This document shows, piece by piece, positions 1-43,577 of a DNA stretch of 64,000 bases; positions within the stretch are counted from its first letter, which is position 1; each line of letters begins with the position of its first letter. This DNA comes from an uncultured Desulfospira sp. (GTDB lineage Bacteria > Desulfobacterota > Desulfobacteria > Desulfobacterales > Desulfobacteraceae), in assembly GCA_963663165.1 (NCBI GenBank), contig OY760175.1:1216001-1280000 (forward strand), read 5' to 3'. Below the pieces are notes generated by a model. The model did not search any database, was not told where the DNA came from, and saw nothing but the letters and a program-made list of their open reading frames with translations. The translations under genes were made by a program, and so were the position numbers.

Positions 1-3000
1 GTAAATGTGACGGGTTTGAACAACAACCAAAAATACTTTTTCAGTGTAACCACCGTCAACCTGTCCGGCGGAGAAGATAAAGACAGCATAACAACCGTCT
101 CGGCAACACCCCAGGCAGATATTACAGGGCCTGAGATCTCCAATGTGACATTGAACGGCGTATCCATGACCAATGCAATGGCCGTAGACAGTCGGGCGGA
201 CATTAACTGCAATGCATCGGATGAAAGCGGCGTATCTCGGGTTGAGTTTCTGATTAACGGCAGATTGTATTCCGATACCGGCGGACCGGATTATTCATGC
301 CAATGGGACATTGCTTCAGTTGAGGACGGTTCATATTCCATTCAGGTTACGGCCTATGATACTTTAGGCAACACCACCACAGTGTCCTATCCCGTATCCG
401 TGGCCTTGGCCAAACCCGCTGCACCAGTCATCACCGCCCCTGCCGGAGGAGAAGTTGTCAATACGCCGTCCGTGAACATATCGGGAACCGCCCTGGAACT
501 TGCCGATGTAATGGTTTATGTGAACGGGAGCGCCTCAGGCGATTGGATAACAGCAGACGATCAGGGCAATTTTAATCTTGCCATAACCCTTTTTGAGGGA
601 GAAAACACCCTTCAGGCCGTGGCCCGGAACCGGGCAGGCCAAAGCCCGTTCAGCACTGCCGTAACCATTACCCTGGATACGGACATCCCGGACAGCCCCA
701 CACATCTTGAAGCCGAACCTGTTGCCGGTGGTGCCGTTTCCCTGAACTGGACCAGGCCGTTGGAAAGCACGGTCAAAGGCTACAACCTGTACCGGTCCGA
801 TACCCGGTTTTCCACCATTGCCCAGGCAGATCAAATCAATTCCGGCCTGATAAAAGCAACACTCCGCAATGATCTGCCCAATGAAGACAAAGAATATTTT
901 TACGGTGTCACGGCCGTGGATCATGCCAGCAATGAAAGTGCTTTATCCAACATAGTCTCTGCCGTTTCCGACCGGGCAGCACCCCAGGCCCTGTCCATAG
1001 AGTACTTTCCTTCAGGTGCTTTTGATGCAGATACCGGCCGCATGGGACCCGGATTTGTCAACGTAACCCTTACCTTAAGCGAACCCCTTGCCGCTACGCC
1101 GTTTTTGAGCATCAATCCCATCGGGGCCGTGCCCATGACAGTGAATCTGACACAGCAATCCGACCTGATTTATACCGGTTTGTTTTCCATTGACCAGGAT
1201 ACACCCACCGGCACGGCCTATGCCGTATTTTCCGCCAGGGATGAAGCCGGGAACCGGGGGGATGCCATAATCGAGGGCGACACCGTAGAGATTGACACCA
1301 GCGGCCCGGAATTAACAGACATCATACTTAATCCCCAGGCACCTGTTCAAAACGATGAATCCGAACCTGTCGAGATAACAGTGGTGCTGGGACTTGACGA
1401 ACCGGTCAAGGCGGGAGAGCCCCCAACCCTGTCTTACCTGCTTTCCGGTGAGGGCCGGACAGCTACAGACATTGATACCCTGACACTTATGGACACCGCA
1501 GACGGCCATGCCCAGACCTGGCAGGCCGTATTTGTCCTTCCGGCCGATGCCGGCCTTAACGGAGCAGAAACCCTGGAATTTATCTATTCCGCCGTGGATG
1601 ACCTGGACAATGTTTCAGACAAAGTCAGTGCAGACAATGCCTTCCAGATTTACCAGGGGGATCTGCCCCCCTTAGAAGCGCCCACGGGTCTTACCGGGGT
1701 CAGTATGCCGGCAGGGGAGATCAGCCTTACATGGAATGCCGTGGATTTTGCCGCAGGATATGTGGTGTACCGGATGGCTCCCGGGCAAGCTCAGCTTTCC
1801 CTTTTAACCACCCTTGACACCACACAATATACGGACCAGCCGGACCAGGAAGGCACCTACACCTATGCGGTGGCAAGTCTGCGCAGTGAAAACGGCCAGG
1901 AAGCCGAAAGCGCCCAAAGTGCGTCTGTTGAAGTTGAGTCCGATGCCACGGCCCCGGGGGTACCCACCGGCCTTACCCTGGCGCTGACACCCCAGGGTAT
2001 CCTGGCCCAATGGACCGAACCTGCCCTGACAGAAACCGTAACCTATGCCCTGTACCGGGCCGATACGGCAGACATCTCTTCAGTGGAAGGCCTTGGGGCC
2101 GTACACACCGATATCCTGGGAACCCAGGCCCTTGATACCACCCCGTCAGAAACCCATCACTATTACGTGGTAACAGCCGTGGACCCGGCCGGTAACGAAT
2201 CCGCCCCATCCGAGCCCGGTTACCATGATTTTGAGCTGCTGCCCGTACAAACCCTGACAGTGACAAGATCCGGCCAGGATGACCCTGTAATCGCCTGGAC
2301 CCATACCGGTTCCAGCATTACCGGGTATGACATTTACCTTGGCCCTTCGGATAACCTTGTCAAGCTGAACAGCGAGCTGAACAGCGAACGGCTGACCCAA
2401 TCCTCTTTTACGGATACCGGGTATGACGGCAGTGAAAGACAGTATACAGTTGTGGCCGTGAACCATAACGAAGTGCCATCCCTGGGCCGCAGCATTATCC
2501 TGCCCGTTCTGGGCATGGATCTGCCTGAAGATGCCGTTCTCAAACGAGGGTTGATGAACCGCCTGGAATATACCGTGGCCAACAGCGGAACCAGTGCTGT
2601 GGAAAGAGCGGTTTTAAAGGTAACGGCCCAGGGCCGGGAACATATCTCACAATCCTTTGGCATTGCCCCGGGTGCATCCCAGACCGTACCCGTGGTGATT
2701 GGCGGGTACAGCGACCTGCCGGACATGGTATCCCTGGTCTCTGCCATAGAGATCACCCCCAATGACGGAGAAACCGTCCGCATCGAAAGCAAGGCCGATA
2801 TTGAGGCCGGCACCGGCATGCTCCTTCTCACCTTTACCAATGACGAACTTGTCCGGGGCACGAAAGGTGAGATTGTTTTCACCCTGGAGAACACCGGGGA
2901 TGAACAGATCGAAATAATTACGGCCCGGTCCAATGGCCACCCGTCTGCCGACATTACCCTTTACCTCAGCGATGAAGACGGCAACATCCTTTCCACAGGC

Positions 3001-6000
3001 ACTTACACCCAGGTATACGGCAGCAACGTGGTCAACCTGTACAACGGCGGCACCATTGCGCGCATCAACCCCGGTGAGACTTTTGAATCCCAGCCCATGG
3101 CCATTGCCGTGCCTTCAGCAGTTCCGGATGACCTTGTGCTGACCCTTGAGATCAGCAATATCTATTACGCTTCAGGAGAGCCCGAACAGGTCACCATGGC
3201 GGGGGTAAGCACCAGCCGGGACATCACGTTGATGGATACAGCCTACTACGGAGAGATCCTGGCCATCACCCCGGAAGCGTCCAACGGCACCCGGGATATA
3301 GAAATCATCGGCCGGGCCGTGGACCGCAGCGACGGCCAGCCTCTTGCGCAAGTCCCCCTGATCCTGGTGATTACCTTTGACGGATTTGAAAAAAGCGCCA
3401 AGGTCTATACCGGCAGTGACGGCAGTTTTACCTATGCCTTTGAACCCACCCCGGGCCAATACGGAGAGTATAAAGCCTGCGCCATCCATCCGGATCTGAT
3501 GGACCGTCCGGTCCAGGGAAGATTTACCATTGCACAAACCGTTAAAGACCGGATCGGGTTTGCCCCGGCAAGTGCTGAACTCACCACCTGCCTGCGGTAT
3601 GAACGGCAAATCGAAGTCACCGTCACCGCAGGCAGTGAGGCTTCGGCAACCAACCTCGGGTTTGTCTATGAGGCATCTGACCAGGAAGAAGAGACCCTGC
3701 CCCAGGGCATTCATGTGGATACGGGTGATCCGGTTGCCGAACTTGGTCCCGGAGAGACCCAGACCATCACCATCACCCTGTGGGCCGATAATACGGCCGA
3801 AGAAAACACCACCATAACCCTCAGGCTGGTCAGCGACGAGGCCCCTGATACCGGCTGGGGAGAATTGCCCATCCGTATCCAAACCACGGACACAGGCCCG
3901 GTGGTAACCAGTGAGCCTAACCGCATAGAAACCGGCCTTGCCCTGGACCAGAGTGTTACAGAAACCCTCACCCTCAAAAACATTGGGTTCGCCCCCCTGG
4001 TTGATCCTGCGGTGTCTCTGGTAAACCGTGACGGCACCCCGGCCCCGGGCTGGGTGTTGTTGAACCTGCCATCGGACATGGATGCCATTGAGGTCGGGGA
4101 AAGCGTAGATGCCACGGTGCTATTTTCTCCCACCCAGGCTGAAGTATCAGAAGGAGAGTATTATTTTTACATTCAGGTGCAAGGCGCCAATTATGCGGCC
4201 GTAAACATCCCTGTCCATGCGGTGGTGACCAGTTCCGGCACGGGCCATATCCTGTTCAAGGTATCGGACATCTACACCGGCACCATTGATGAAAAAACCG
4301 GCAAGATGATCCAGGGACTGTCCGGAGCCGCGTTGACCCTGCAAAACGAGAGTGCCGCAAGCATCACCTACAGCGGTGGTACAGACCAATACGGGGAGCT
4401 GCTCTTATCCGACATCCCCGCAGGCCGGTACAAGTATATCTTAAAAGCAGACGACCATGAGCAGTCCATTGGCCGGGTCTGGATCAAGCCGGGCATTACA
4501 GCCACCCAGGATGTTTTTTTAAACAACACCCTTGTCACCGTGGAGTGGTCAGTGGTTGAGACCGGTATCCAGGACCAGTATGAGATCGTATTAAAGGCTA
4601 CCTATGAGACCAATGTCCCGGCACCGGTGGTGGTGGCCGATCCCCTGTCCGTCTCCCTTGCGGGCATGTCACCCGGCGATGTCCTGTCCGGAGAAATCCG
4701 GTTCACCAATTATGGGCTGATCCGGGCGGACAATATTGAATTTGCGGCCCCTTCGTCTGACCAATATTTTAAATACGAGTTTTTAGACATCCCTGCCACC
4801 ATAGAAGCCAAAGAATCTGTCAATGTGGCTTATCGCGTAACCTGTCTGTCAAGCCTGACCGGTGAGGATGAGGGCAACGGCGGGGGGGCCGGAAGCTATT
4901 CGAAATCGGGTAAAATGAGTTACTCTGCCAAGTGTTACTCCGGGTCTATATCAGTTAATTTCAATGTCCCGGGAACCGGCAGCGGTGGTGACTGGACAAT
5001 GCCTTGGGGATCGGCGAGCAGCACAGGCTTTGGCCGTTCCAGCGAAATTCCCGAAGGAGTGAAATGCTGGCCAGGTTATGACCGTGAAGAACCATCCTTT
5101 CTTAACGCTCCAAAATCAGATCAAATCCAATGCGTTTTGTCTTCAGTGAATATGCTGCACCGGGAATATAATCGCCACAAAACCGACATCCGGGTCAAGG
5201 TGCCCGGCGGGACGATAAGTTTTGAACGGCGGTATTACGACAACCAGTGGCACCTGGATTATCTGGATGATAATTTAACCTTTCAAAGCACAGGATCGGA
5301 CTTAATTATTAAAAACGATGTTAAATACAAACCTGTCGCCAACGACAGCCGTATTTTTATCCATAAAAATTATAAAATCATCACTACCGACACCGGGTAT
5401 ACCTGGAAGGCACCCCATGGCGACTGGAAAAAATTTGACCCGGACGGCCGCATGATGTCTTACGGTGACCGGAACGGCCTGGTGGCCCAACTCATTTACG
5501 AAGATGGAGAAAATGGACGCCTTACAGGCATAGCCGATAAAAACATGCGCCAAATATTCTGGTTTGAATACGACGGGGAAGGAAACCTGGCAGCCGTAGA
5601 AGACTTTGAGAGGCGTCGGATTGAATACTCTCATGGGAATGGCCTGCTTACGGACGTCCAGGATTTACAGGGGAATACAACCAGCTATGAATACGACGAT
5701 GAGAACCGGATTATAAAGACAACTACGCCAGACGGGCATTATTCCACAGTGGTATACGACGAATACGACAATGTGACTCAATCCCTGGATGAAAATAACC
5801 AGGGGTACGGTTTTGAGTATGTCTATAGTGAATCCACAAGGCTGTCTTATGCCATGGTCACTTCTCCTGCAGGGCAGGTCAAGGAGGCCTGTTATGACCT
5901 GGACGGGTACACCCGCAGGGTTGACATAAACGGGCGTACAGTCAAGACCATTGATGTATCACTAAGAACCTTTGCCGTGACCGATGAGAACGGCAATGTA

Positions 6001-35995: not shown

Positions 35996-36334
35996 TTGAG
36001 CACCAACAGCTTAGAGACCACGGATATCTTCAGGGGAGCGTTTTACCTTTGCATGGGAGGTGATCTGGCCGAGATCCGGATGAACCACCGGCAGATTGCA
36101 TCCTTTATGTTTGCAGGTCCGGACCTGGCCAAACATGACAAGGCCTATGTCAACGGCCATGCCCTGGTCAACCCCGTGCAGTTCAGGCAGGCGCTGAACC
36201 ACCTGCGGGATATCCTATTTACGAGATTGAGACAAGGAAGATACGAGAATGATAGAACAAGTAAGGATCGACACCATCAAAACCAGTGTGGACCTTGTGG
36301 CCTATATCGGACAGGCCACCGGAGCCGCATTTAA
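35996..36334 (+). CDS. Small hypothetical protein upstream of primase
   Basis: A strong RBS (aaggaggtga) precedes the TTG start. The 3' end overlaps the primase gene. Confidence 0.55.
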   Translation: MSTNSLETTDIFRGAFYLCMGGDLAEIRMNHRQIASFMFAGPDLAKHDKAYVNGHALVNPVQFRQALNHLRDILFTRLRQGRYENDRTSKDRHHQNQCGPCGLYRTGHRSRI

Positions 36335-37010
36335 AAAGAACGGCAAGGGGTATGTATGCCGGTGCCCGTTCCCGGACCACGAAGACAAGACCCCGTCCTT
36401 TGTGGTTACTCCCCATGAGAACCTTTGGAACTGCTTTGGCTGCGGCAGGGGCGGTGATGTGTTTGAGTTTGACCGCCTGTATTTTAGCCTGGACTTCAAG
36501 GCATCGGTTCAAAAGCACGAATCCGTTGCCTCGTCCCCAAAGAAGGCAGTTAAAAAGAAAAAGGCCCCAGGCTCAGACAAGGCCCTGACCGTCAAAGAGC
36601 AAAAACTTCTGACCCGAGTGGTATCCTATTACCAGCACAGCTTTGGCGAAGATCCCAAGGGGATGGCCTATCTGAAAACCAGAGGGATCAGAGAAAATCA
36701 ATCGTTCTCGGATTTTGGTGCAGGCTTTGCCAACGGCACCCTGCTCAACATCCTTCCCGAAGATACCGACATTATCAACTCCTTAAAAAAGATCGGGATA
36801 TTGAACAGCCGGGGCAAAGAGGTGTTCATCAACTGCGTGGTGTTCCCGCTGTATGATGACAAGGGATCTGTGGTGAATCTCTATGGCCGGAACATTGACG
36901 ACGGCTGTAGGATCAAGCATTTGTATTTGCCAGGCAAACGCAACGGTCTTGTGAACCGCCAGGCGGCCAAACGGTCCCAGACTTTATACCATCAAAAACG
37001 CCCGGTATGA
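36249..37010 (+). pseudogene. DnaG-like primase (CHC2 zinc finger plus start of catalytic core), truncated before the Toprim domain
   Basis: CPFPDHEDKTPSF...WNCFGCG and VVFPL...NLYGR. Homology ends at about SQTL (36985), where recombinase-like coding sequence begins in another frame. Confidence 0.8.
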
Positions 37011-37032: not shown

Positions 37033-37857
37033 ATGGCCAAAGAAACGCCCCCGACCCTGGACAACCTGACACGGGAGATCTTGTATGAGTACCAGCAGGA
37101 GCTGGCCTTCAGAGTCTCTTCCAGGGGTAAGCTGTTGAGCCTTCGAACCCAGGGGCAGCGCCTTGGGGTGATCAAATCTTTTACCCGGTATTTAAAGGAA
37201 CATGATTATATGATCCTGGATCCGGGGGATGCCATCAGGTTGCCAAAGACACCCAAGCGTCTGCCAAAGGTGATCCTGAACACTATGGAACTTAAAAAGA
37301 TCATGCAGGCGGCGGACATCCGGACAACCCGGGGTTACAGAAACCGGGTGATCCTGGAGATCCTCTATGATACAGCCATCCGACGATCGGAACTTGCCGG
37401 CATTAAGATCAATAACCTTGATCTGCACTCAGGCTTTATCCATGTTCACGGCAAAGGTGATAAAGATCGTGTGGTGCCGGTGAGTGACCGGGTCAGCCGC
37501 CTGATTGAAAATTATATCGTGATGGTACGTTCGGGATACATTCAGGGGAAGGACACCGGCCACCTGGTCCTGAACCGGTGGGGAGAACAAATGGATCCCA
37601 ACGCCATATGGGCGGTGGTCAAACGATGTGCAGACCTGGCCGGGATCAGAAAGAACGTCTCCACCCACACGTTCCGGCACACCTGTGCCACCCACATGCT
37701 TAAAAACGGTGCCCCGGTCCGGCATATCCAGGAGATGCTGGGCCATGAATCGTTGGAATCCACGCAAGTTTACACCCGGGTGACCATCAACGACCTAAAG
37801 GAGATCCACGCCAAATACCATCCGGGAGAGAAAAAAGGGAATACCTCCACGCATTGA
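37033..37857 (+). CDS. XerC/XerD-like tyrosine recombinase, probably missing its first residues
   Basis: Catalytic set R (AIRRSE), K (HGKGDKDR), HTFRH, H (LGHES) and Y (TQVYT). The frame extends upstream as YTIKNARYELRAFITF with no start codon. Confidence 0.88.
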   Translation: MAKETPPTLDNLTREILYEYQQELAFRVSSRGKLLSLRTQGQRLGVIKSFTRYLKEHDYMILDPGDAIRLPKTPKRLPKVILNTMELKKIMQAADIRTTRGYRNRVILEILYDTAIRRSELAGIKINNLDLHSGFIHVHGKGDKDRVVPVSDRVSRLIENYIVMVRSGYIQGKDTGHLVLNRWGEQMDPNAIWAVVKRCADLAGIRKNVSTHTFRHTCATHMLKNGAPVRHIQEMLGHESLESTQVYTRVTINDLKEIHAKYHPGEKKGNTSTH

Positions 37858-37953
37858 CATTGCCAGACTTATGGGTAAATATGGGTAAATTTATGGATAT
37901 TTAATAAGGATGGCCAATGTTGAATCCTAGGATAAAAATCACACCCGAAATCT
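37553..37953 (+). repeat. 401-bp tandem duplication (xer 3' end plus fic 5' end); second copy at 37954-37996 + 42208-42564
   Basis: Direct sequence identity with about 3 differences. The second copy is split by the transposon. Confidence 0.88.
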
Positions 37954-38134
37954 ACACCGGCCACCTGGTCCTGAACCGGTAGGGAGAACAAATGGATGAG
38001 AATGGTCACAGAAAATCATGGAAAAATTGAAGATAATTTGCAAGATATGTCAGGTTTGAGGCAGAAGTTCCCTTGTTTATCTCGCAAATAATCGTGAAAC
38101 TCCTGCCTCCCCACCCAATAACAGGGCAGGAGAT

Positions 38135-38722
38135 ATGCTATCAGAAGTTCTAAAAAGCGAAAGTCTTTTTTGGAATCTATACAAAATAGATCTGGCAACA
38201 GCCGAACGTTATAGACAGATGAAGTGCCCCCACTGCCAGGGACCGTTGTATTATGCCAATTATCTGCGCAAACCCAGGGGGGAGCCTGAAGGGTTGTCTG
38301 AAGAATGTTTTTTACAATTCAGTTTATGCTGCGGAAGGGAAGGCTGCCGACGGCGTTTGATCCCGCCAACCTGCCGTTTCCTTGGTAAAAACATTTACTG
38401 GTATGCGGCCATTCTGACGATTGTGTCCGACTGGCAGAACCAATCTGTAGGTATCACGATGTCCAGGTTTGCTGAAACAATCGGTATCTCCCGCAACACC
38501 CTTAGACGCTGGGTCGGTTTGTTTAAAGAAATATTTCCAACAAGCGCTCAATGGAAGAAAATCCGGGGCCGAGTGCCTGCAAGCGTGAAAAATGACAGTC
38601 TTCCGGCAAGTTTGGTCAACTTCTATCTGCATCAACAGGCATCCATCAAAGAAACGTTGATCTCCTGTTTGTCATTCTTGTCTCAAGGCAATGAAATATC
38701 ACAAAAAATAAGGGCCGGGTAA
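38135..38722 (+). CDS. Zn-ribbon/HTH accessory protein of the transposon
   Basis: CPHC...CCGREGCRRR plus an HTH-like segment (IGISRNTLRRW). Confidence 0.72.
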   Translation: MLSEVLKSESLFWNLYKIDLATAERYRQMKCPHCQGPLYYANYLRKPRGEPEGLSEECFLQFSLCCGREGCRRRLIPPTCRFLGKNIYWYAAILTIVSDWQNQSVGITMSRFAETIGISRNTLRRWVGLFKEIFPTSAQWKKIRGRVPASVKNDSLPASLVNFYLHQQASIKETLISCLSFLSQGNEISQKIRAG

Positions 38723-38735
38723 TCTCACGCAGAAG

Positions 38736-40283
38736 ATGGGCGTGGCCTTGGGCGATCAACTGTTCTATCAAAGGGGCCGGGATTTTTATCAGCATTCCGC
38801 TGAAAATTTTAACTTAAAATTGAAAGGACCCCGGCCTATGAACAGTAAAAACCAAAGTCCGGTTGATAAATGGGCTTTGTTTCGCTTCTCAGTCGTTGGT
38901 GGTTTGCTGGCAAATCCGCCGGCCAAGGGTGAGCTGCGTAAGGAACTGGAAAAGCTTTCCAATCAGATTTACACCCATCCCATCACGAACGAATCGACGG
39001 TATTTCATTTTTCAACTATTGAAAGCTGGTATTACAAGGCAAAAAATGCCCAGGACCCCATCATTGCTTTAGGACGGAAAGTTCGTTCAGACTATGGCGG
39101 TTCAATTGTATTCACGCCTGAACTGATCCGGATGCTGGGCAGACAATACCGGACCTATCCGAACTGGAGCTACAAACTGCACGCAGATAATTTCGCAGCA
39201 GAACTTCAAGAAAAAGCCAATTCAGTATCGATACCATCCTATGCCAGTGTCCGGCGGCGGATGGTCGAAAGAGGGTGGACCAGGAAACCCTCAGCCAAGA
39301 AAAAACAGACAGCGGGCATGAAAACTGCCGCAACGCGGTTCGAAAGCCATGAGATCCGTGGATATGAAGCAGAATGTGTTCACAGCCTGTGGCATCTGGA
39401 TTTTCATGAAGGCAGTCTGCGGGTGGTGGATAACAACGGTAACTGGTATACGCCCAAAGCCTTATGTATTCTTGACGACCACTCCCGCCTGTGCTGCCAC
39501 ATCCAATGGTATTCAGGAGAAACCACCCAGGATTTGATTCATGGATTGACCCAGGCCTTTTTCAAAAGGGGGCTTCCCAGGGCACTGATGACGGACAACG
39601 GATCTGCCATGACCTCCCATGAGTTTTGCAACGGGCTTAAGAAAACAGGGATACTTCATGAAACGACATTGCCCTACAGCCCTTATCAAAACGGTAAGCA
39701 GGAAGCCTTTTGGGGCACCCTTGAAGGCAGATTGATGGCCATGCTGACCCGGGTGGACCCTCTGACACTGGAATATCTCAATCACCGCAGTCAGGCTTGG
39801 GTCGAGATGGAATATAACAAAACCAGGCATAGTGACATCGGCACATCTCCTGTTCAACGCATGCTTGAAGGCAAAGATGTTTCCCGGCCGGCACCGGATG
39901 AAGAACAATTACGTTTCGCCTTTACAGTTTGCGAAGTCAGAAATCAGCGCAAGTCTGACGGTACCGTGTCCATCAACGGGGTAAGATTTGAGATCCCTTC
40001 CCGGTTTCACCATATCCCTCGGTTACATGTCTGCTTTGCCAATTGGGATAAATCCATGGCCTGGCTCATGGACCAGAGAACCGGCAAACAGATTGCGCCG
40101 ATCTACCCCCAAGACAAAATCAAAAATGCTTCAGGAAAACGAAAGATCAAGTCGAGACCTGAACATACCATTCTACCGGATGAAACATTGAAAGAATCCG
40201 AGCCTGCATTATTAAGAAAACTGATGGCCGAGTATGCCCAAAGCGGCATGCCCCCAGCCTATCTGCCCAAAGGAGAATCATGA
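38736..40283 (+). CDS. DDE (rve) transposase with Mu-type C-terminal domain; likely start at 38838
   Basis: Motifs WHLDFH, ILDDHSR, LMTDNGS and PYQNGKQEAFW; C-terminal RKSDGTVSINGVRFEIP. Confidence 0.9.
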   Translation: MGVALGDQLFYQRGRDFYQHSAENFNLKLKGPRPMNSKNQSPVDKWALFRFSVVGGLLANPPAKGELRKELEKLSNQIYTHPITNESTVFHFSTIESWYYKAKNAQDPIIALGRKVRSDYGGSIVFTPELIRMLGRQYRTYPNWSYKLHADNFAAELQEKANSVSIPSYASVRRRMVERGWTRKPSAKKKQTAGMKTAATRFESHEIRGYEAECVHSLWHLDFHEGSLRVVDNNGNWYTPKALCILDDHSRLCCHIQWYSGETTQDLIHGLTQAFFKRGLPRALMTDNGSAMTSHEFCNGLKKTGILHETTLPYSPYQNGKQEAFWGTLEGRLMAMLTRVDPLTLEYLNHRSQAWVEMEYNKTRHSDIGTSPVQRMLEGKDVSRPAPDEEQLRFAFTVCEVRNQRKSDGTVSINGVRFEIPSRFHHIPRLHVCFANWDKSMAWLMDQRTGKQIAPIYPQDKIKNASGKRKIKSRPEHTILPDETLKESEPALLRKLMAEYAQSGMPPAYLPKGES

Positions 40284-41107
40284 ACAACAAACAGCTTCTG
40301 GCTTATTACGGCCTTAAATGGAATCCTTTTTTGTCCAATATCCCCGTGGAGGCTTTATGGCATCCGCCATTGATGAACAGTTTTATTTTTCGTCTTGAGA
40401 ATATGACCCTGAACGGGGGCTTTGCTTTGATCAGCGGGGACCCTGGCCTTGGCAAATCCAAGGCGTTGCAGATGATTGCCCAAAAGTTCGGTAAACTTGA
40501 CGAGGTAGTTGTCGGGGTAATGGAACGTCCCCAAAGCAGTGTCGGAGACTTTTACCGGGAAATGGGAGTTTTGTTTGGTGTCAATTTAAGCCCTGCCAAC
40601 CGGTATGGCGGGTTCAAGGATCTTCGGGAGCGCTGGAGGCATCATGTAAAAACCACCTTGTTCCGGCCCATCCTGCTCATAGATGAAGCCCAGGAGATGC
40701 TGACCGGATGCTTAAATGAACTGCGTTTGTTGAACAGCGCGGACTTTGACTCCCAAAACCTGTTGACCACCGTGATTTGCGGCGATGACCGGCTCCCGGA
40801 ACGGTTCAGATCAAGATCCCTGGTATCGCTGGGAAGCCGGATGCAGTTCCGGTTGACGCTGCTTCCCTATGTCCGGGATGACCTGCTGGATTACATGGAT
40901 CACAGCCTGAACCAGGCCGGCGCCCCGCACTTAATGACGAAAACTCTGATCAGGACCCTTGCAGACCATTGCGCCGGCAACCTGCGGGTTCTTAACAGTA
41001 TGGCCGCAGACCTGCTGGCTGCGGGGATTGAGAAAGAACTCAATCAATTGGACGAAAAACTTTTTATGGAAGTCTATTCCAGACAGCCGCCCAATAAAAA
41101 ATCATAG
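40280..41107 (+). CDS. AAA+ ATPase (ExeA/MuB/TniB-like transposition helper)
   Basis: Walker A GDPGLGKS and Walker B LLIDEAQ; 4-nt overlap with the transposase. Confidence 0.88.
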   Translation: MNNKQLLAYYGLKWNPFLSNIPVEALWHPPLMNSFIFRLENMTLNGGFALISGDPGLGKSKALQMIAQKFGKLDEVVVGVMERPQSSVGDFYREMGVLFGVNLSPANRYGGFKDLRERWRHHVKTTLFRPILLIDEAQEMLTGCLNELRLLNSADFDSQNLLTTVICGDDRLPERFRSRSLVSLGSRMQFRLTLLPYVRDDLLDYMDHSLNQAGAPHLMTKTLIRTLADHCAGNLRVLNSMAADLLAAGIEKELNQLDEKLFMEVYSRQPPNKKS

Positions 41108-41116
41108 GAGAACAAT

Positions 41117-41299
41117 ATGGGTATTTATGATGATCCGGACATGAAACTGGAAGAAATTACACAGGAATTGGAACATTTTATCCTGGATATGGTCCTTGCC
41201 GGACTTGAAAACTTGAATATGGAATATCGGGCCTTCAGGCAATTCCAGAAACAAAGGCTCACGGAAAAGAACCGTCATAAAGAACACGAGCCGTTTTAA
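41117..41299 (+). CDS. Small hypothetical protein (60 aa)
   Basis: RBS aggag; co-oriented within the transposon operon. Confidence 0.55.
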   Translation: MGIYDDPDMKLEEITQELEHFILDMVLAGLENLNMEYRAFRQFQKQRLTEKNRHKEHEPF

Positions 41300-41336
41300 A
41301 CGTACGCCCGGACTCTAAAGGTCCGGGCCTGCCTCA

Positions 41337-42125
41337 ATGGAAAAAATACTATGGAAAATCGGCAATTATTTTAAGCACCGCTTCAGCCTGGCAGTTCTTG
41401 ATGAAATTAAGGGCCGGTGGCCCGTTCTCCCCTCTTGTAAAAACATCCCTTATCTTAAAGCTGAAAATGCCGGAGGAAGGCACATCCTGATCAGACCTGA
41501 TCCTGTTATTGAGCCTTATTATTTTCTTGCCGACGATTTAAACATTGACCTGCTTATCCGGCATCATCAATCCATATCAAACCGCTTTAAACCAGGCAGG
41601 ATGGTTATGGAAACATCTCCCGGCAATTATCAAATTTGGATTCACAGTGACCGTCCGTTAAGCCTTCCCGAAAAAAAGTATTGGTTGGAAAACATGCACA
41701 GTGATCCCGGCGCCGACCCGAAAAACAGGTGGGGCAGATGCCCCGGGTTCAGGAACAGAAAAGCAAAACATAGAACGCCTTCAGGACAATACCCTTTGGC
41801 AAAGCTATTATGGGTGGACTGGAAATGCCAGGCTATTGTCCCTGAAATAGAATTATCCTCCCGACCTCAAGAAGTCTTTTCCCATCAACCCCGGGGGGGA
41901 GTGTGCCATAACGGTAATATTTCCCGCTCCCTCTATGATAAGGGTGACGAATCTGCCACTGATTTTGCATATGCTCTGGCCCTCTATAGAAGAGGTTTTT
42001 CACGAATGGAAATTTACAATCGCATTATCAATGAAAGGCAGGATTGGATTAATCATGCGGATGAACGAAAAAAAACACAGTATCTGATCAGGACATTACA
42101 AAAAGCTGAAAAAATTATCAGTTAA
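41337..42125 (+). CDS. RepB-type DNA primase (AEP superfamily, RSF1010 RepB'-like) with C-terminal helical domain
   Basis: Motifs FLADDL, ETSPGNYQIW and DPGAD...RWGRCPGFRNRK; C-terminal DESATDFAYAL...YLIRT. Confidence 0.78.
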   Translation: MEKILWKIGNYFKHRFSLAVLDEIKGRWPVLPSCKNIPYLKAENAGGRHILIRPDPVIEPYYFLADDLNIDLLIRHHQSISNRFKPGRMVMETSPGNYQIWIHSDRPLSLPEKKYWLENMHSDPGADPKNRWGRCPGFRNRKAKHRTPSGQYPLAKLLWVDWKCQAIVPEIELSSRPQEVFSHQPRGGVCHNGNISRSLYDKGDESATDFAYALALYRRGFSRMEIYNRIINERQDWINHADERKKTQYLIRTLQKAEKIIS

Positions 42126-42527
42126 AATCGGGCTCTCTTGGCCTCCGGGAAAGCCCTTATTTACCATGAAACGTTGTCCATGAATTATCGTGATTGCTCT
42201 CAATGGATCCCAACGCCATATGGGCGGTGGTCAAACGATGTGCAGACCTGGCCGGGATCAGAAAGAACGTCTCCACCCACACGTTCCGGCACACCTGTGC
42301 CACCCACATGCTTAAAAACGGTGCCCCGGTCCGGCATATCCAGGAGATGCTGGGCCATGAATCGTTGGAATCCACGCAAGTTTACACCCGGGTGACCATC
42401 AACGACCTAAAGGAGATCCACGCCAAATACCATCCGGGAGAGAAAAAAGGGAACACCTCCACGCATTGACATTGCCAGACTTATGGGTAAATATGGGTAA
42501 ATTTATGGATATTTAAAAGGATGGCCA

Positions 42528-43577
42528 ATGTTGAATCCTAGGATAAAAATCACACCCGAAATCTTAAACCTCATTGCCAAAATAGACGAGTTCAAAGGGG
42601 AATGGAAAGCCATCGGGAACCTGGCTCCTGATCGCCTCAATGCCCTTAAGCATGTGGCAACCATAGAATCCATAGGGTCTTCCACGCGGATCGAAGGGGT
42701 TAAACTGAGTGATCAGGAGATCGAGTTGCTGTTATCCGGCCTGGACAAAAAGTCTTTTGGCTCCAGGGATGAACAGGAGGTGGCCGGATATGCTGATGTA
42801 ATGAACACCGTGTTTGAATCCTACGGGCAGATCCCGTTTACTGAAAACTATATCAGGCAACTGCACAAGATGCTGCTCCAATACAGCTCAAAGGATACAC
42901 GGCACCGGGGGGAGTATAAAAAGATGACCAATCATGTGGAGGCGTTTGACCATGACGGGAAAAGCCTGGATGTCATCTTTGAAACATCCTCGCCCTTTGA
43001 TACACCCAGAGACATGGAAGAGCTGCTGGCATGGACCAGTAAGCAGTTAAAAGAAAAAGAGCTTCATCCCCTGTTAACCATATCTGTATTTATCGTTCAT
43101 TTTTTGGCCATCCACCCGTTCCAGGACGGCAACGGAAGGCTATCAAGAGTGCTGACAGCCCTGCTGCTGTTGAAAGAGGGATATCTGTACGTTCCCTACA
43201 GTTCCCTGGAAAGTGTGCTTGAAAAAAACAAGGACAACTATTACCTGGCCTTGAGACGGACCCAGGGTTCGTTTAAATCTGAAGAACCGGACTACACTCC
43301 CTGGCTTACCTTCTTCCTGGACGCCCTTGACGCACAAAAGGAAATGCTGGCCCGGAAGATCGAAAGGGAGAACGTTTTTACGAAACTGCCCAAGCTATCC
43401 CGGCAGATCATTGAACTGGTGAAGGATCATGGAGAGCTGTCCATATCAGAGATCGAATCCATCACAGGAGCCAACCGAAACACCATAAAGAAAAAGCTGG
43501 CAGAACTTGTGCGGGACAACCACCTGACCAGGCAGGGCCAGGGTAAAGGGACCCGGTATGTTCCTGGTATAAAATAG
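42528..43577 (+). CDS. Fic-domain protein with C-terminal HTH
   Basis: Catalytic motif HPFQDGNGRLSR and N-terminal inhibitory-type motif SSTRIEG. Confidence 0.92.
   Translation: MLNPRIKITPEILNLIAKIDEFKGEWKAIGNLAPDRLNALKHVATIESIGSSTRIEGVKLSDQEIELLLSGLDKKSFGSRDEQEVAGYADVMNTVFESYGQIPFTENYIRQLHKMLLQYSSKDTRHRGEYKKMTNHVEAFDHDGKSLDVIFETSSPFDTPRDMEELLAWTSKQLKEKELHPLLTISVFIVHFLAIHPFQDGNGRLSRVLTALLLLKEGYLYVPYSSLESVLEKNKDNYYLALRRTQGSFKSEEPDYTPWLTFFLDALDAQKEMLARKIERENVFTKLPKLSRQIIELVKDHGELSISEIESITGANRNTIKKKLAELVRDNHLTRQGQGKGTRYVPGIK

Follow-up and report, generated by a model that had tools for sequence, protein, structure and literature searches.

A RepB'-type primase gene as a probable exchangeable accessory module in a Tn6049-family transposon of an uncultured Desulfospira sp.

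What does a RepB'-type DNA primase do inside a transposon of 4.2 kb? The question is raised by a stretch of 64,000 nucleotides from an uncultured Desulfospira sp. (assembly GCA_963663165.1, contig OY760175.1, positions 1,216,001 to 1,280,000 of the forward strand), which is called the window in the following. Five co-oriented open reading frames (ORFs) on the plus strand fill the window from 37997 to 42202, and the last of them encodes the primase. A first reading of the letters without database searches (the sequence-only reading) had proposed that the primase is a core module that primes replicative or copy-out transposition and thereby defines a class of self-priming transposons. Comparison of the element with its copies and relatives points to a different role. 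The slot after the ATPase gene is non-random in its content, which is a RepB primase, a DnaG-type primase, an AAA_25 RepA-like ATPase or nothing, and close relatives of the primase occupy at least four or five unrelated transposon types. We consider it somewhat probable that the primase is an accessory module, exchangeable between elements, that provides priming for DNA synthesis coupled to transposition, a function assigned here from sequence comparison. The features of the element are listed below (window coordinates; amino acids are abbreviated as aa).

37992..37996, no strand: target-site duplication, left copy ATGGA (flank sequence, copy comparison)
37997..38026, plus strand: left terminal inverted repeat TGAGAATGGTCACAGAAAATCATGGAAAAA, which fits the family-wide end motif
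38135..38722, plus strand: ORF1, 195 aa, Cys-rich and helix-turn-helix-like, conserved in nearly all family members
38838..40283, plus strand: DDE (rve) transposase, ~481 aa (Pfam rve, 3.2e-13), the stop of which overlaps the ATPase start
40280..41107, plus strand: AAA_22 ATPase, 275 aa, GspA/ExeA-like, a MuB/TniB-like helper (Pfam AAA_22, 1.1e-16)
41117..41299, plus strand: ORF4, 60 aa, with homologues found by jackhmmer across loci
41337..42125, plus strand: RepB'-type (AEP) DNA primase, 262 aa, catalytic and C-terminal helical domain (PF16793, PF22448)
42173..42202, minus strand: right terminal inverted repeat, reverse complement TGAGAGCAATCACGATAATTCATGGACAAC (copy comparison, family end motif)
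42203..42207, no strand: target-site duplication, right copy ATGGA (flank sequence, copy comparison)

The element at 37997-42202 is a real, precisely bounded and recently active transposon, since it is multicopy, includes identical copies and has exact ends. The window's genome, a single contig of 6.74 Mb, was searched with the 4206-bp element as query and yielded nine full-length matches (query 1-4206), three at 100% including the window copy, one at 98% and five at 97%. One further copy lies across the contig origin and another one is present in three pieces, broken by two insertions. The search for other copies, which had been suggested beforehand, thus ended with 10 intact copies and one interrupted copy; three further fragments of 41 nt resemble the right end. 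Among the nine compared copies, three are identical, one is unique and five are identical, the sequence types being apart by at most 112 positions, and all five ORFs are open in each of the nine. Similarity among them runs exactly from TGAGA to TCTCA and the flanks are unrelated, so that the borders predicted for the 4206-bp element were found to be correct at both ends. Contig depth within the element is about 10 times that of the flanks, which restates the copy number.

The direct repeats flanking the nine copies measure 5, 5, 5, 6, 6, 6, 4, 3 and 3 bp. Target duplication is therefore real but variable in length: the ATGGA duplication of the window copy stands, whereas a fixed length of 5 bp does not. 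Family-wide, both ends carry the motif TGAG-N4-(A)TCAC-N-ATAA-N-TGATGG. The inverted repeats are imperfect: over the first 24 positions, the two ends of the window copy agree at 16 (read by eye) and those of the near-identical element L011 at 17 (L numbers denote surveyed loci).

The interrupted copy (4929062-4939243 of the window's genome) contains two inserts of ~4.06 kb and ~1.9 kb. Six element bases are repeated at each break, which suggests that the inserts are nested insertions of other mobile elements.

The primase matches both PF16793 (RepB_primase; 3.8e-15, 56.7 bits at a cut-off of 24.3) and PF22448 (RepB_primase_C; 1.1e-7, 32.0 bits at a cut-off of 26.1). When aligned to the RSF1010 RepB' structures 3H20 and 3H25 (E 1e-11), its residues D66, D67, D123 and R134 fall on D77, D78, D134 and R145 of RepB', which we take to be the catalytic residues of that enzyme. 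The four positions are invariant among 14 primase homologues (54-100% identity). The ratio of non-synonymous to synonymous substitution rates (dN/dS; Nei-Gojobori, 10 pairs of related elements) is 0.12-0.30 for the primase, compared to 0.08-0.21 for the transposase (nine of the 10 pairs computable), 0.03-0.11 for the ATPase and 0.16-0.28 for ORF1. When the window's genome was searched with the primase protein, the only matches were the 10 intact copies, in all of which the primase is intact, and the interrupted one, in two pieces. Judged by these characteristics, the protein is a genuine primase that looks catalytically intact and is under purifying selection. Its identification as a RepB'-type AEP primase was hence borne out, as was its position, the stop at 42125 being 77 nt inside the right end.

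RepB' of the IncQ plasmid RSF1010 requires specific ssi hairpins (ssiA/ssiB) and works with the RepA helicase and the RepC initiator in a plasmid replicon. The window's primase belongs to the same two-domain family (PF16793 and PF22448) and has an active site with conserved acidic residues and arginine. It differs in that its gene lies inside a transposon, in whose five ORFs Pfam detected neither a RepA nor a RepC domain and in which inspection revealed no recognisable ssi site; neither an initiator protein nor iterons nor origin-like repeats are evident in the 4.2 kb of the element.

The content of the slot after the ATPase gene was surveyed across the Tn6049 family, to which the element belongs (see below). 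An alignment of 12 transposase sequences was scanned against one genome per species, the best 79 loci of 430 relatives were kept, and slot classes were assigned by tblastn, Pfam and profiles made from the loci. ORF1, transposase and ATPase co-occur in nearly all 79 loci, and the slot was found in the following states.

No fourth gene: 33 of 79 loci, the right end lying 71-528 nt beyond the ATPase
DnaG-type primase (CHC2 zinc ribbon and Toprim, ~300 aa): 9 of 79 loci
AAA_25 RepA-like ATPase (~330 aa): 7 of 79 loci
RepB primase: 6 of 79 loci
Unclear: 1 of 79 loci
Unreadable, the contig ending early: 23 of 79 loci

No other class of cargo was seen in the slot among these 79 transposase-seeded loci. 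Counting distinct elements with a readable slot in the same sample, a fourth gene is absent in 21 of 42. The sequence-only reading had named absence from most close homologues, as expected of sporadic cargo, as the observation that would speak against it. The survey shows a divided picture: all readable elements with a transposase identity of at least 86% have the primase, and where it is missing, the slot often holds another primase or a helicase-like ATPase, which is the opposite of sporadic cargo.

Wherever both ends could be located, the fourth gene lies within the inverted repeats (e.g. L014, L029, L061, L074, L077 and L079). Elements of the RepB type are 4032-4287 bp long, those of the DnaG type ~4150-4250 bp and primase-less ones 3333-3566 bp. 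Six DnaG-type proteins have invariant CHC2 residues, an invariant Toprim glutamate and an invariant DxD motif; in L037 an insertion splits the DnaG gene. A 4695-bp element from Isosphaeraceae, with AAA_25 and a 124-aa CHC2 zinc-ribbon ORF, is present in four copies that are 99.8-99.9% identical (L078 5157-9853 and L087-L089 5075-9769), one of which has a matching flank repeat (L087, CGCCC).

The transposase tree was calculated from 60 distinct near-full-length rows (IQ-TREE quick search, SH-aLRT support), leaving out partial matches, exact duplicates and L048 (stop codon). The window clusters within a clade of 13 rows with 100% support. RepB primases in that clade are found in the basal L029, in L013, in L015, in the pair formed by the window and L011, and in L014, whose sister group (98%) comprises primase-less elements of Desulfobacula and Desulfobacter. 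One basal gain of the primase and one loss would be the most parsimonious history of this clade. Alignment, blastp and profile search revealed no primase remnant in the primase-less sister element, so that the direction of change, a loss, is read from the topology of the tree alone. The DnaG, AAA_25 and distant RepB (L059) states are scattered elsewhere in the tree, with at least 12 state changes among the rows of known state.

The primase-less sister element is 3541 bp in length and is present in at least 13 copies with target duplications of 3-7 bp on one Desulfobacter chromosome. The primase profile found no match on that chromosome, compared to 12 places in the window's genome.

The flanks of two primase-less Desulfobacter copies (L020 9160-10824; L025 8651-10648) were also inspected: one flank translates to repeated short peptides, as CRISPR-like direct repeats do, and the other one contains a 665-aa ORF.

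Relatives of the primase itself were collected by scanning metagenome contigs with a primase alignment. The best 80 of 253 relatives were kept (51-80% identity), and their context was called from tblastn with representative proteins and from Pfam. Transposition genes adjoin the primase in 75 of the 80 loci, in the following contexts.

Tn6049-like elements: 31 of 80
Second family with rve (~434 aa) and AAA_22 (269 aa) genes, the transposase 25-28% identical to that of the window: 30 of 80
Three tandem Phage_integrase ORFs (~305, 305 and 327 aa), then the primase: 10 of 80
Protein of 545-563 aa without assigned family, with a weak AAA_22 gene: 3 of 80
Operon with IS21-type IstA/IstB: 1 of 80
No readable context (short upstream sequence, or an IS110 gene): 5 of 80

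A plasmid-like replicon context was not seen among the 80 loci. The layout with three recombinases is presumably that of the 'recombinase in trio' elements, a name which we assume to apply. The primase gene comes last in each of the three large classes, with ~50-80 nt between its stop and the element boundary, which was defined by the family end motif, an inverted repeat (L148) or the point at which near-identical pairs diverge (L149 from L147, L153 from L155).

A primase tree of 80 distinct rows (L117, L118 and L059 dropped as partial matches, exact duplicates removed) clusters strongly by transposon type, with 13 changes compared to a mean of 37 after shuffling and none of 200 shuffles as low. 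Despite this clustering, the tree demands several switches between transposon types. In L092, L098, L099 and L100, a primase 73-76% identical to that of the window stands beside a transposase of only 45-49% identity, which is a clear case of module exchange. The distribution of the primase across genomes is patchy: among 201 genomes sampled within the order, 8 have it, that of the window included.

Some of these relatives were characterised further. Tyrosine-recombinase trios are found in L134 (159-3869) and also in L147, L153, L155, L157, L128, L149 and L150; their RepB-type primases are 52-57% identical to that of the window, and the boundary lies ~70 nt past the primase stop. The second rve and AAA_22 family is represented by L152 (922-3837) and others (e.g. 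L133, L136, L141 and L148), the ends of which finish in ...CCAACA and have repeated TCCATTTAAT-like motifs. In L166 (953-4018), the primase stop overlaps the start of an IS21-type istA, which is followed by istB; the arrangement resembles an IS21-like element in which the primase gene precedes istA within one operon.

In these transposons, three genes form the core: they encode a Cys-rich/helix-turn-helix protein, a DDE transposase of the Mu/IS481-like kind and a helper ATPase (AAA_22), lie between TG...CA ends and give target duplications of 3-7 bp. The window lineage has added a RepB'-type primase in the slot just inside the right end, sister lineages have a DnaG-type primase or a RepA-like AAA_25 ATPase in that slot, and other, unrelated transposon types have also acquired this primase clade. 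An accessory priming module of this kind could work as follows. The primase would make primers for the lagging- or complementary-strand synthesis that accompanies transposition, either at the forks resulting from strand transfer or during the copying-out of a circular intermediate. As a consequence, the replicative step would depend less on the host primosome. Action of the primase on intermediates of the transposon itself, and the step concerned, are inferences; the anatomy, copy number, family relationships and slot content of the elements are observed, as are the integrity, selection and dispensability of the primase.

At the strand-transfer forks of Mu, the target 3' ends prime the leading strands, and the lagging strand needs a helicase and a primase. 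During copy-out, a flanking 3'-OH primes the synthesis of a circular copy, as the available text of 10.1101/2023.06.07.543989 describes for IS3, IS21 and others. In the window's element, copy-out is suggested by the variation in target duplication length and by a transposase of the IS481/IS3-like kind, Mu-like target capture by the MuB/TniB-like ATPase.

Several observations weigh against an accessory priming role. The primase is dispensable for proliferation, given the at least 13 primase-less copies in a genome without a match to the primase profile, and half of the distinct readable family members have no fourth gene at all. In 76 sequences, the 110 nt 3' of the primase contain no ssi-like hairpin or motif shared across transposon types, as far as inspection alone can tell. 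The route of the Tn6049 family may be replicative, copy-out or cut-and-paste. In addition, the tyrosine-recombinase chemistry of the trios creates no strand-transfer fork, yet the primase is present there. A single DDE strand-transfer mechanism can therefore not explain all cases, and the occurrence in trios argues for a DDE-independent role, e.g. in replicating an intermediate that is circular.

The primase and the other slot genes could also be passengers that serve the carrier replicon or the host, or that hitch-hike, with the right-end slot being the only place where an insertion is tolerated. Possible benefits would be the establishment of plasmids or of incoming single-stranded DNA, damage-tolerant repriming or the countering of a defence. 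A passenger would be expected to be lost without loss of mobility and to shift between unrelated transposon types in the manner of cargo, both of which are observed for the primase, and the inspected sequence 3' of it offers no cognate DNA site. We nevertheless regard this explanation as unlikely. Ordinary transposon cargo is functionally diverse, whereas the slot in the transposase-seeded sample is restricted to three classes of replication-initiation proteins or nothing; the surveyed primase relatives are almost all transposon-borne (75 of 80) and none has a plasmid-like context; and selection on the primase equals that on the transposase in strength. Alternatively, an excised circle might be replicated by means of the primase (or helicase) before re-integration. 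This would account for one primase in DDE, IS21-like and trio elements, which perhaps share only a circular intermediate, and replication modules are likewise thought to serve SCCmec and integrative conjugative elements. Circles are formed by IS21 and several DDE families according to the available text of 10.1101/2023.06.07.543989, and that of PMC7581432 proposes the primase-helicase of SCCmec as a replication module. A replicon can, however, not be founded by a primase alone, and the 4.2-kb element shows none of the initiator, iteron or origin-like features mentioned above, which makes episomal amplification quite improbable. Assembled contigs from four of 12 runs, the only material examined, showed no circle junction, which speaks neither for nor against circles or excision.

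The proposal that the primase is a core, required module defining a self-priming transposon class agrees with its presence in all of the closest readable relatives and with its intactness in all 10 intact copies of the window's genome. Its absence from half of the distinct readable members, from Tn6049 and from a multicopy, proliferating sister lineage nested among carriers contradicts it, as does the replacement of the primase by unrelated enzymes in other lineages. We consider the proposal hardly tenable. What remains of the self-priming idea is an optional accessory function, which does not define a class.

A wider interpretation can be put forward tentatively, with a chance that we place a little below even. 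RepB'-type primases, DnaG-type primases and RepA-like ATPases might form a transposon-specialised guild, one member of which is repeatedly recruited and swapped at the right ends of unrelated families, namely two or more families with DDE transposase and AAA_22 ATPase, IS21-like elements and tyrosine-recombinase trios. Priming or replisome loading would then be a common rate-limiting host dependency, and 'self-priming' transposons would be a broad undescribed class. Should element-encoded priming boost transposition, primosome loading would be a host dependency that transposons have repeatedly escaped. This would also provide an experimental handle on the movement of Tn6049-like, IS21-like and recombinase-trio elements, the mode of which is now at most presumed. 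For annotation, nearly all close relatives of the 'RepB family DNA primase' in our sample are transposon genes and not plasmid genes, so that PF16793 matches in metagenomes should not be read as plasmid hallmarks. The compact primases (~260 aa), which are found across many phyla, may be useful enzymes. The searched literature, with ~1.7 million PMC articles and subscription journals lying outside the search, holds no description of a primase inside a small bacterial transposon.

Based on gene content, the element is assigned to the Tn6049 family as an active member, with Tn6049 as the closest named relative. In a tblastn search of the transposase against plasmids, Tn6049 copies on Cupriavidus metallidurans replicons and on Pseudomonas aeruginosa pHS87a were found to be 47% identical. 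Compared to Tn6049 of pHS87a, tblastn identities are 32% over 164 aa for ORF1 (E 4e-23), 47% over 461 aa for TnpA and 50% over 268 aa for the ATPase. The annotated order on pHS87a is a small 'transposase' ORF, an 'IS481 family transposase' (PGAP), an 'AAA family ATPase' and a 90-aa hypothetical ORF. The available text of PMC2864759 gives Tn6049 a length of 3.5 kb and counts 12 copies of it in C. metallidurans CH34, each with a gspA-like ATPase gene, and that of PMC4739549 gives its ends as 12-bp imperfect inverted repeats starting TGTG with a 4-bp direct repeat. The two elements share three homologous core genes in matching order and a small ORF after the ATPase and, as far as these texts describe Tn6049, imperfect inverted repeats that start with TG, a short target duplication and a multicopy state. 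The 12-bp end sequence given there is unlike the ends of the window's element. Tn6049 is 3.5 kb long and has no primase or other large fourth gene; with 4206 bp and a primase of 262 aa, the window's element is therefore a Tn6049-family variant and not a canonical copy.

ORF1 matches Pfam with weak helix-turn-helix hits alone, all of them below threshold. Its Cys-rich part is a probable zinc ribbon; C31, C34, C65, C66 and C71 are invariant in an alignment of 21 sequences. An AlphaFold2 model of ORF1 (mean pLDDT 73) gave no match with E ≤ 0.001 against the PDB in Foldseek, the best value being 0.41, and look-alike clusters in the Atlas bear DUF6431/HTH, which serves as a lead only. The open frame of the transposase begins at 38736 (515 aa). 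Since its homologues have ~480 aa and cover 93% of the frame, translation probably starts at 38838 and not at 38736. The residues D188, D253 and E289 (481-aa numbering) are invariant in 12 sequences and presumably form the DDE triad. The closest NCBIfam model is the IS481 model NF033577 (106 bits, below the cut-off of 224), and the closest PHROGs are Mu-type transposases (phrog_310, 1.8e-33); the ATPase is closest to phrog_296, a 'DNA transposition protein'. The Pfam matches of transposase, ATPase and primase all exceed the gathering scores. With rve, AAA_22, RepB_primase and the sub-threshold helix-turn-helix of ORF1, the identities originally given to the co-oriented genes hold.

ORF4 has no family match in Pfam, NCBIfam or PHROGs. 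It was considered as a partner of the primase, which was rejected, as ORF4 homologues are also present in primase-less elements; by this distribution it is classified as a backbone gene. No TnsA, TniQ, resolvase or IstB-type ATPase domains were found among the element ORFs (Pfam; for the partners also NCBIfam), and no DNA polymerase domain was found in any of them (Pfam, NCBIfam and PHROGs).

Just upstream of ORF1, a stem CTCCTGCC ... GGCAGGAG at window positions 38096-38134 overlaps the ribosome-binding region and occurs at the same place in relatives. Because motifs resembling GGACTCCTGCC are present in distant family members, the stem may be a translational control element of ORF1.

An rve-fold DDE transposase, TG...CA ends and a helper ATPase are shared with Mu, Tn552, Tn5053/Tn402, Tn7 and IS21, and the placement of the element near Mu, Tn7 and Tn5053 is correct to that extent. 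It fails in other respects: the target duplication of the window's family is 3-7 bp, unlike the fixed 5 bp of Mu, Tn7, Tn5053 and Tn552, and the TnsA, TniQ, resolvase or IstB-type ATPase components that distinguish Mu-, Tn7-, Tn5053- and IS21-type systems from the window's element are missing from it. We know of no Mu, Tn552, Tn5053/Tn402, Tn7 or IS21 element that encodes a primase. The element is also distinguishable from the IS481 family, since the cut-off of NF033577 is not reached and five genes are present compared to the single gene of an insertion sequence (IS).

Three other systems provide partial parallels. The IS-excision enhancer IEE, a PrimPol-helicase, is a precedent for a primase acting with transposases (10.1101/2023.06.07.543989); it is encoded outside the insertion sequences on which it acts and promotes their excision. 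CCPol-MP/Cch2 of SCCmec is a precedent for a primase-helicase serving an integrative element (PMC7581432), although this module belongs to a large cassette that serine recombinases mobilise, and the primase in it is an A-family polymerase complex. Self-synthesizing transposons (casposons and Polintons) share the concept of a transposon that brings replication enzymes. They differ in having a protein-primed family B DNA polymerase and Cas1 or retroviral-type integrases, whereas the window's element has a primase and no polymerase.

The window copy is inserted into a duplicated target, which lies outside the element and consists of two parts.

37553..37953, plus strand: target segment of 401 bp, duplicated in tandem, first copy (flanking context)
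37954-37996 and 42203-42564: second copy of the 401-bp duplication, carrying the transposon

The 401-bp unit comprises the 3' end of a tyrosine-recombinase gene, a spacer and the start of a Fic gene (35 nt). The transposon sits 44 nt into the second copy, which differs from the first by a few bases, one of them creating a stop codon. In run X1, which may be the sample of origin, contigs cover 37590-37953 at ~1.6 times the depth of the flank, and this raised depth fits a real duplication of 401 bp. A long flank duplication as a signature of the transposition mechanism was rejected, as only the window copy has one (one of nine). Just upstream of the tyrosine recombinase, at 36249-37010, the window contains a 253-aa ORF with DnaG zinc-ribbon and DNAG_N domains, which probably encodes the primase of an integrative element that served the transposon as its target.

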